Shown here: positions 30,958-31,737 of the stretch, in pieces
How positions within the stretch are numbered: the stretch's first letter is position 1
Layout: every line of letters starts with the position of its first letter
Sequence record: OR995200.1
DNA length: 64,000 bases
Direction: 5' to 3' (one strand)
Source: Escherichia phage JY01
Position numbers and translations under genes: made by a program
The notes under the pieces: generated by a model
Databases searched by the model: none
The model's input: the letters and a program-made list of their open reading frames with translations, nothing else
What the model was told of the DNA's origin: nothing

Positions 30958-31737
30958 ATGGCAGTTGAAGGACCGTGGGTAGGATGGTCTGCGAGGGTAC
31001 AAACTGGAGACCCTTGGATGGCTGGTGCCGCGCAGAGATTGAGAATGGGAATTCCGTTTTGGATGAGTAATATGATAGGTCGATCTGTTGAAGTAATTCA
31101 CACACTTGGAGCGGACCATAACTTCAATGGTCAATGGTTCCGAGATAGATGTTTTGAGGCAGGTAGTGCACCTATAGTGTTTAATATCACTGGAGATTTA
31201 GTATCATATTCTAGAGATGTTCCTTTATTCTTCATGTACGGAGATACACCTAATGAATATGTTCAATTGAATATACACGGCGTAACGATGTATGGTCGCG
31301 GCGGGAATGGTTGGGCTGCTGGAGCGATTGGAGCGTCTGACGGTGGTGTATGTATCCAAAATGATATAGGTGGACGTCTACGAATTAATAACGGGGGAGC
31401 TATTGCTGGAGGCGGCGGCGGTGGCGGTGGATATTCGCAAGCCAATAACTGGGCAGGAAAATATGTATGTGGAGGCGGCGGTGGTCGTCCATTTGGTTTA
31501 GGCGGAAATAATGGTGCTCGATGGCCTGGTGGAAATGCTAGCTTAACAGCACCAGGTGCTGGTGGTAATACTGGTACAGGGTATTATGCAGGTGGAGGTG
31601 GTGAAGTTGGTCAGCCAGGACAATATGCTAATCCAGGTGCTGGTTATTCAACACCTCCGACAAATCCTGGTGCTGCTGTAGCAGGATCAGCTCCAACATG
31701 GCAAAACGTTGGAGCTGTATACGGTTCAAGAGTATAA
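30958..31737 (+). CDS. 38: gp38 tail fibre adhesin, T2/T6 type with glycine runs
   Basis: 259 aa from MAVEGPW (SD GGAGG 6 nt upstream); poly-Gly runs [10 protein letters not shown] and [12 protein letters not shown] separating variable segments. Confidence 0.85.

Follow-up and report, generated by a model that had tools for sequence, protein, structure and literature searches.

The question raised by this locus is which protein at the end of the long tail fibre meets the bacterial receptor, and specifically whether g38 (30958-31737, + strand; 780 nt, 259 aa plus stop) encodes an adhesin of the kind found in phages T2, S16 and PP01 or an assembly chaperone of the T4 kind. In PP01, S16 and T2, gp38 is located on the fibre tip of the virion and binds the outer-membrane receptor (PMC12892980, PMC6851490). 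We consider a two-protein fibre tip of this T2/S16/PP01 type, with the gp38 adhesin docked on a self-cleaved gp37, to be very probable here (roughly 0.93).

The long-tail-fibre locus

The window, by which we mean the whole 64,000-nt stretch of DNA that was analysed, comes from a Tequatrovirus (T-even phage). Its long-tail-fibre cluster and holin gene span 21894-32424 on the + strand, as do all features described below unless they are called antisense. The genes are g34 (21894-25763; 1289 aa), g35 (25772-26887; fibre hinge protein gp35), g36 (26950-27606; Pfam Phage_T4_gp36), g37 (27615-30926; distal long-tail-fibre subunit of 1103 aa), g38 and the holin gene t (31768-32424; Phage_holin_T, 1.6e-116). 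This gene order is common to the window, T4, T2, T6, PP01 and Sf23, and g38 lies directly 3' of g37 and 5' of t, the expected placement for an adhesin gene. Over the 10.5-kb fibre locus, the nearest record is that of Shigella phage Sf23 (MF158046; 98.3% identity). For a separate 24 kb of the window, no record in the phage collection exceeds 96.9% identity, and the phage is therefore a distinct but ordinary member of its genus.

The T4-type late promoter consensus TATAAATA is found just 5' of g34 (21852-21859) and again 24 nt 5' of the g36 ATG (26919-26926), where it probably marks the start of a g36-g37-g38 late transcript. We assume the promoter role of this second copy from knowledge of T4, its position being suggestive; the count of six in the whole window, as compared with 9.4 expected, is not above chance. 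No copy lies directly 5' of g37 or g38 on the + strand, which suggests that g36, g37 and g38 are co-transcribed.

The G+C content of the window peaks at 30001-32000 (0.429, versus ~0.35 elsewhere), together with a strong positive GC skew (+0.235), because of GGN glycine codons. Codons 114-259 of g38 reach 51.7% G+C, with mainly GGT and GGA encoding glycine. Within gp35, residues 58-127 match the Pfam family ILEI, the interleukin-like EMT inducer or FAM3-type domain, at E 3.5e-07 (31.1 bits, with the cut-off at 27), and we know of no description of such a domain in T4 gp35.

Translation start of g38 and an intercistronic hairpin

The mechanically called open reading frame of g38 opens ten codons earlier than the gene as we place it, at ATG 30928 (269 aa). 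We rejected this codon: it lies in a hairpin stem, lacks a Shine-Dalgarno sequence and is not used by the annotated homologues of Sf23, PP01 and T2, which open with MAV or MAI. The ATG at 30958 is the correct start because a Shine-Dalgarno GGAGG, read from the sequence (30948-30952), stands 5 nt before it and because it gives the same beginning as these homologues; the gene limits and the length of 259 aa given in the initial annotation are thus right.

A stable RNA hairpin (30929-30948), whose 8-bp stem carries a C(UUCG)G tetraloop, separates the g37 stop codon (30924-30926) from the ribosome-binding site of g38. Its 3' arm extends to the first G of the g38 Shine-Dalgarno sequence, and the spurious ATG 30928 falls inside it. 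Intercistronic CUUCGG hairpins are a feature of T4, and this one may be of the same style. The motif CTTCGG is overrepresented in the window, with 30 copies compared with 12.8 expected, and none of 100 shuffles reached 30. One of the other copies is found between g35 and g36 (26899-26904). Antisense open reading frames over g38 (30809-31105; 31263-31445, with poly-Pro; 31644-31835) were also discarded, since GGN codons produce such frames when read on the opposite strand.

Family identity of gp38

Two Pfam families were identified in gp38: GP38 (PF05268; 6.8e-72, 242.3 bits against a cut-off of 25) and Gp38_N (PF21721; 2.7e-20, 72.5 bits against a cut-off of 25), the latter corresponding to an N-terminal attachment domain at residues 1-40 (30958-31077). 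The best match among solved structures is PDB 9V85 (4.9e-143), which covers residues 41-259 and differs only at A198S and V254I. This entry contains the receptor-binding domain of PP01 gp38, an OmpC binder, as residues 41-259 fused to GFP (PMC12892980). The second match, over the full length, is S16 gp38 (PDB 6F45_D; 3.4e-50), and gp38 can also be aligned end to end with T2 and T6 gp38. Relatives were found by tblastn in 839 phage records, the best of them 98.5% identical and belonging to Escherichia phage SF, whose isolation host was E. coli O157:H7. A scan of gp38 and the gp37 C-terminus against NCBIfam, a library aimed at bacterial annotation, returned no families.

If gp38 were instead a T4-type assembly chaperone, it would remain outside the virion and receptor binding would reside in gp37. 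Some records do label gp38 homologues as 'distal long tail fiber assembly catalyst', a wording that is a legacy of T4 naming. However, BLASTP detects no similarity between gp38 and T4 gp38 (E = 1.4), and a tblastn search of T4 gp38 against the whole window found no match (best E = 4.0). Moreover, the near-identical PP01 gp38 crosslinks directly to OmpC (PMC12892980), and S16 gp38 is bound to the gp37 tip in the crystal (PMC6851490). The initial annotation had assigned gp38 to the T2/T6-type adhesins rather than to the T4 chaperones; both Pfam families, the two structural matches and the full-length T2/T6 alignment bear this out, and the alignment to T4-type gp38 that would speak against it was looked for and is absent. 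Judged by its sequence, gp38 is an adhesin of the T2/S16/PP01 type and not a chaperone of the T4 type.

The phage with this best gp38 match, SF (MH359124), is a Mosigvirus, a genus other than that of the window's Tequatrovirus relatives. Its g38 lies at 3501-4280, where the record gives no single CDS for the gene and lists just a short antisense 'tail fiber protein', and its gp37 DNA is far more divergent from the window, with up to 45 mismatches per 100 nt. The likeness of the two gp38 proteins looks like the result of an adhesin-cassette exchange between genera, combined with an annotation gap.

Glycine motifs and variable loops

Glycine accounts for 61 of the 259 residues of gp38 (23.6%) and for 48 of the 146 residues from 114 to 259. 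When the protein's own residues were shuffled in 100,000 trials, a glycine run of at least eight arose in 123 and such a run accompanied by a second of at least five in only 5; the glycine runs are more than chance. The glycine-rich specificity region (residues 114-240; 31297-31677) consists of glycine motifs and five variable loops. It contains a Gly8 run (residues 151-158; 31408-31431), followed by YSQ and equivalent to the central polyglycine-II (PGII) helix 3 of S16 gp38 (PMC6851490), as well as a Gly5 run (residues 172-176; 31471-31485) within the invariant motif GGGGGRP(F/L)G. Both of the strings that had initially been read as two poly-glycine runs are present (residues 152-161 and 172-183), but the first run is properly the eight glycines at 151-158, and the motifs of two or more glycines number ten in all, not two, in agreement with the count for S16 gp38.

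We used an alignment of 11 gp38 sequences from several genera (compared were T2, T6, S16, PP01, Sf23, SF, PhAPEC2, CrRp10, IME341 and RB49; K3 and Ox2 were left out). The glycine motifs are invariant in length and register throughout this set, the segments between them vary, and Trp7, Trp20 and Trp35 of the attachment domain stand in invariant columns. The window protein has an extra tryptophan, Trp10, as well. In the S16 structure, gp38 is a monomer that caps the gp37 trimer, with an N-terminal three-helix bundle that inserts three conserved tryptophans into gp37 pockets, followed by a five-ring beta-helix (PMC6851490). Two long excursions then carry ten glycine-rich motifs, which form a three-layer polyglycine-II lattice around Gly8 as the central helix, and the distal face of this lattice bears five projecting hypervariable loops (PMC6851490). 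PP01 gp38, solved at 2.1 A, shares the design, and its loops have been named A-E (PMC12892980).

Low-complexity runs of this kind could also be taken for flexible linkers, or for slippage-prone DNA of no structural role, between variable segments that fold independently. Their low-complexity look and the rise of local G+C to 52% through GGN codons lend themselves to such an interpretation, but the solved structures of PP01 (2.1 A) and S16 refute it by showing hydrogen-bonded PGII helices in a three-layer lattice (PMC12892980, PMC6851490). It is further contradicted by the invariance of motif length and register across genera, by the mixture of GGA, GGC and GGT codons that interrupts any homopolymer tract, and by the finding that T6 does not tolerate deletion of individual motifs (PMC3157838). 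We regard it as almost certainly wrong. Since the motifs form PGII helices in the solved homologues, those of the window are best understood as a rigid scaffold and not as flexible spacers. The earlier proposal that glycine runs separate variable segments therefore stands insofar as the segments between motifs do vary, but the motifs themselves are a rigid PGII core, some ten of them framing five loops.

Following the limits set for PP01 (PMC12892980), the loops of the window protein are loop A (residues 119-124; 31312-31329), which is the same as in PP01; loop B (residues 161-170; 31438-31467), next to which Tyr159 is kept; loop C (residues 184-189; 31507-31524); loop D (residues 204-209, NTGTGY; 31567-31584), whose Tyr209 is essential in PP01; and loop E (residues 225-231, NPGAGYS; 31630-31650), which includes Ala228 and Tyr230, key OmpC contacts in PP01. 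Crosslinking and mutagenesis have shown that PP01 loop E, through these two residues, inserts into the cleft that separates loops 5 and 7 of O157 OmpC, and that Tyr209 and Tyr159 are also required (PMC12892980). All five loops and Y159, Y209, A228 and Y230 are identical between the window protein and PP01 gp38, and A198S and V254I both fall outside the loops. On the basis of this identity, the receptor is predicted to be O157-type OmpC.

An adhesin with another receptor, such as OmpA, OmpF, FadL, Tsx or LPS, also has to be weighed. Relatives built on the same scaffold use many receptors (PMC3157838, PMC12032242), the nearest relative of the whole locus, Sf23, is a Shigella phage, and two residues do differ from PP01. 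Against this, the loops and the four residues identified by PP01 mutagenesis are all unchanged (PMC12892980), closely related gp38 sequences have been found to share a receptor (PMC12032242), and it is precisely loops D and E that differ from Sf23 and agree with PP01. We consider a non-OmpC receptor unlikely, and O157-type OmpC remains the predicted partner. As for the initial statement that the gp38 loops set host range, loop specificity is experimentally established in the near-identical PP01 (PMC12892980), but what the loops determine is adsorption specificity, which is one component of host range.

The shaft, tip and C-terminal chaperone of gp37

The mature part of gp37 (residues 1-992; 27615-30590) forms the shaft of the distal long tail fibre, and it ends in ~80 residues with homology to the gp38-docking tip of S16 gp37. 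It is followed by an intramolecular chaperone at the extreme C-terminus, the last 111 of 1103 residues (residues 993-1103 plus stop; 30591-30926). Residues 993-1052 match Pfam Peptidase_S74 (PF13884, 'chaperone of endosialidase'; 1.1e-12, 48.4 bits against a cut-off of 22). Residues 912-1103 match the S16 gp37 construct in PDB 6F45_A (6e-44), with 54.7% identity between the two chaperone domains. When the last 116 residues alone were compared with the PDB, 6F45_A was again found (3e-33), and the only other match below 0.1 was the auto-processing domain of MYRF (7dc3; E 0.013). Among eukaryotic proteins, myelin regulatory factor (MYRF) is related to phage S74 domains.

The domain opens with a Ser993-x4-Lys998 dyad (R^SDIRVKK; Ser993 codon 30591-30593), which aligns with S^SDRRIKK of S16, SDIRLK of T2, SDSRLK of T6 and (A)DLRAK of MYRF. 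Autocleavage of S16 gp37 removes the last 113 residues at DLNVS^SDRRIKK and exposes the gp38 docking surface (PMC7917993), and T2 and T6 gp37 are proteolytically processed before gp38 capping, a fact on record since 1986 (PMC3157838, citing Drexler et al.). By analogy, cleavage of the window protein is predicted between Arg992 and Ser993, and its C-terminal folding domain is probably self-cleaving. The suggestion that gp37 ends in a segment resembling cleaved-off intramolecular chaperones is supported both by the Peptidase_S74 score and by the alignment of the dyad with the experimentally known S16 cleavage site (PMC7917993).

A C-terminal heptad-repeat helix occupies gp37 residues 1069-1103 (30819-30923), with five clean heptads in the last ~35 residues (a = I, I, I, I, V; d = N, H, L, L, L). 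The coiled-coil pattern is limited to this stretch, so that 'coiled-coil-rich' describes the very end of gp37 but not the rest of the chaperone domain. A single-sequence AlphaFold2 model of residues 981-1103 is confident only in the long terminal helix (pLDDT 76-88); its mean pLDDT is 53, and the S74 fold as a whole is therefore not confirmed by the model.

The alignment of T4 gp37 with the window protein is confined to residues 1-640 of the latter (34% identity), and the last 300 residues of T4 gp37, its receptor-binding needle tip, found no match in the window by tblastn (E = 0.54). A gp37 that lacks the T4 needle tip and has its own intramolecular chaperone is a further argument against a T4-type assembly role for gp38, to which we give virtually no credence. 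Separately, residues 418-561 of gp37 match the C-terminal trimerisation domain of gp34 (Pfam Gp34_trimer, 4.9e-08; PDB 4UXE and 5NXF, ~1e-12), and residues 481-738 of T4 gp37 also match the g34 region of the window (24789-25481), indicating that gp34 and gp37 share a module.

Proposed mechanism of tip assembly and receptor binding

Drawing mostly on homologues, we propose the following steps. By homology, gp37 (1103 aa) would trimerise with the aid of its own Peptidase_S74 chaperone (residues 993-1103), which would then remove itself by autoproteolysis through Ser993/Lys998 at the Arg992/Ser993 bond; the motif is seen here, and cleavage would proceed as in S16 and T2. As in the S16 structure, this cleavage would bare the blunt end of the gp37 beta-helix, where one copy of gp38 would dock through its N-terminal helical domain by means of Trp7, Trp20 and Trp35. 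In the C-terminal half of gp38, 99% identity to 9V85 suggests that approximately ten glycine motifs would fold into a rigid PGII sandwich from which the five loops project. The adhesin would then bind OmpC of O157-type E. coli in the cleft between OmpC loops 5 and 7.

Mosaic structure of g38

The resemblance of the locus to Sf23 and of the adhesin to PP01 was compared at sites where these two phages differ, of which 216 are informative between 29800 and 31800. The window is of the Sf23 type at 185 of them. One unbroken block of 15 PP01-type sites extends over 31576-31668, and no run of equal length was seen in 100,000 permutations. Sf23-type sites at 31563 and 31692 close it off on either side, so that the PP01-like patch extends at most over 31564-31691 (codons ~203-245, including loops D and E); the rest of g38 is Sf23-like. 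Its breakpoints fall in the conserved PGAGG motif and in a conserved C-terminal motif. On the 5' side of the block, differences between PP01 and the window are mostly at third codon positions and leave the protein unchanged. The location of the block over loops D and E thus accounts for a protein that is PP01-like in its loops within a locus that is Sf23-like. Near the 3' third of g37 (29800-30000), Sf23-type and PP01-type sites alternate, a hint that the fibre shaft contains other small mosaic patches.

T-even adhesins, with their design of conserved motifs and hypervariable segments, are known to recombine between the motifs (PMC3157838). The mosaic of g38 fits this motif-to-motif recombination, which changes adhesin specificity. 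That the phage is a natural loop-swap recombinant, with a PP01-type segment of ~100-130 nt in an Sf23-type gp38 gene, is a tentative proposal to which we would give somewhat under even odds. If correct, the loop swap would have taken place naturally and recently, switching the target of the adhesin between Shigella-type and O157-type OmpC, and the window and Sf23 would form a minimal natural pair for mapping which OmpC variants are discriminated by loops D and E.

Significance

The adhesin family, its arrangement of glycine motifs and loops, its attachment through an S74-autocleaved gp37 tip and the OmpC specificity of this loop set have all been described already, and mostly solved structurally. 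At the level of its sequence, the window gp38 is 98-99% identical to proteins already characterised and offers nothing new. The results are chiefly a matter of annotation: the phage appears to use the gp38-adhesin route and not the T4 gp37-needle route, and labels of the 'assembly catalyst' type inherited from T4 are wrong for g38. Near-identity to PP01 permits a specific receptor prediction, namely O157-type OmpC via loops D and E. The Sf23/PP01 mosaic is a further natural example of the exchange of specificity loops at conserved motifs, useful for host-range engineering, and opens no new question.

Comparison with known systems

The closest characterised adhesin is PP01 gp38 (PDB 9V85; mBio 2026, PMC12892980), which has the same length of 259 aa and the same gene order. 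Across the gene, PP01 g38 differs at 61 nucleotides, mostly synonymous, and the backbone of the window is Sf23-like outside 31564-31691. In the N-terminal attachment domain, 7 of 40 residues differ from PP01, and the gp37 tip differs in parallel, so that attachment compatibility is read from the Sf23-like pairing of the two proteins. In Sf23, the last 160 residues of gp37, chaperone domain included, are identical to those of the window and the gp38 N-terminus is nearly identical. Sf23 gp38 differs in loop D (NTGQ-YW versus NTGTGYY in the window) and loop E (PGNGYS versus PGAGYS), where it has Asn in place of the OmpC-contacting Ala228 of PP01 and the window.

The S16 gp37(3)-gp38 tip (PDB 6F45; Dunne et al. 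2018) shares with the window the order of gp38 domains, from a Trp-pronged N-terminal bundle through a beta-helix to a PGII sandwich whose central helix is Gly8, and a gp37 C-terminal chaperone of the autocleaving type with an SDxRxKK motif. It differs in sequence (identity is ~45-50% for gp38 and 55% for the chaperone domain), in its loops and in its receptor, Salmonella OmpC. The gp38 proteins of T2, T6, K3 and Ox2 (Henning group 1987-89; Trojet et al. 2011) belong to the same family and have the same layout of glycine motifs and hypervariable segments, with gp37 processed before gp38 caps it. Their loops differ, as do their receptors (OmpF/FadL, Tsx and OmpA), and the glycine-rich regions of T2 and T6 gp38 are 48-49% identical to that of the window.

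T4 gp38, the assembly chaperone, occupies the same genomic slot between g37 and t but is an unrelated protein (E = 1.4), and T4 gp37, which has no S74 domain, itself binds the receptor. Peptidase_S74 chaperones at large (K1F endosialidase, T5 pb1, phi29 gp12 and MYRF) resemble the domain described here in following a trimeric beta-helical fibre at the C-terminus and in their Ser-x4-Lys dyad, G(L/I/V)(I/V)AQ...LPE motif and terminal helix, while their sequence similarity to it is distant (MYRF, E = 0.013). In contrast to these chaperones, removal of the domain from the window gp37 would also create the docking site for a separate adhesin.
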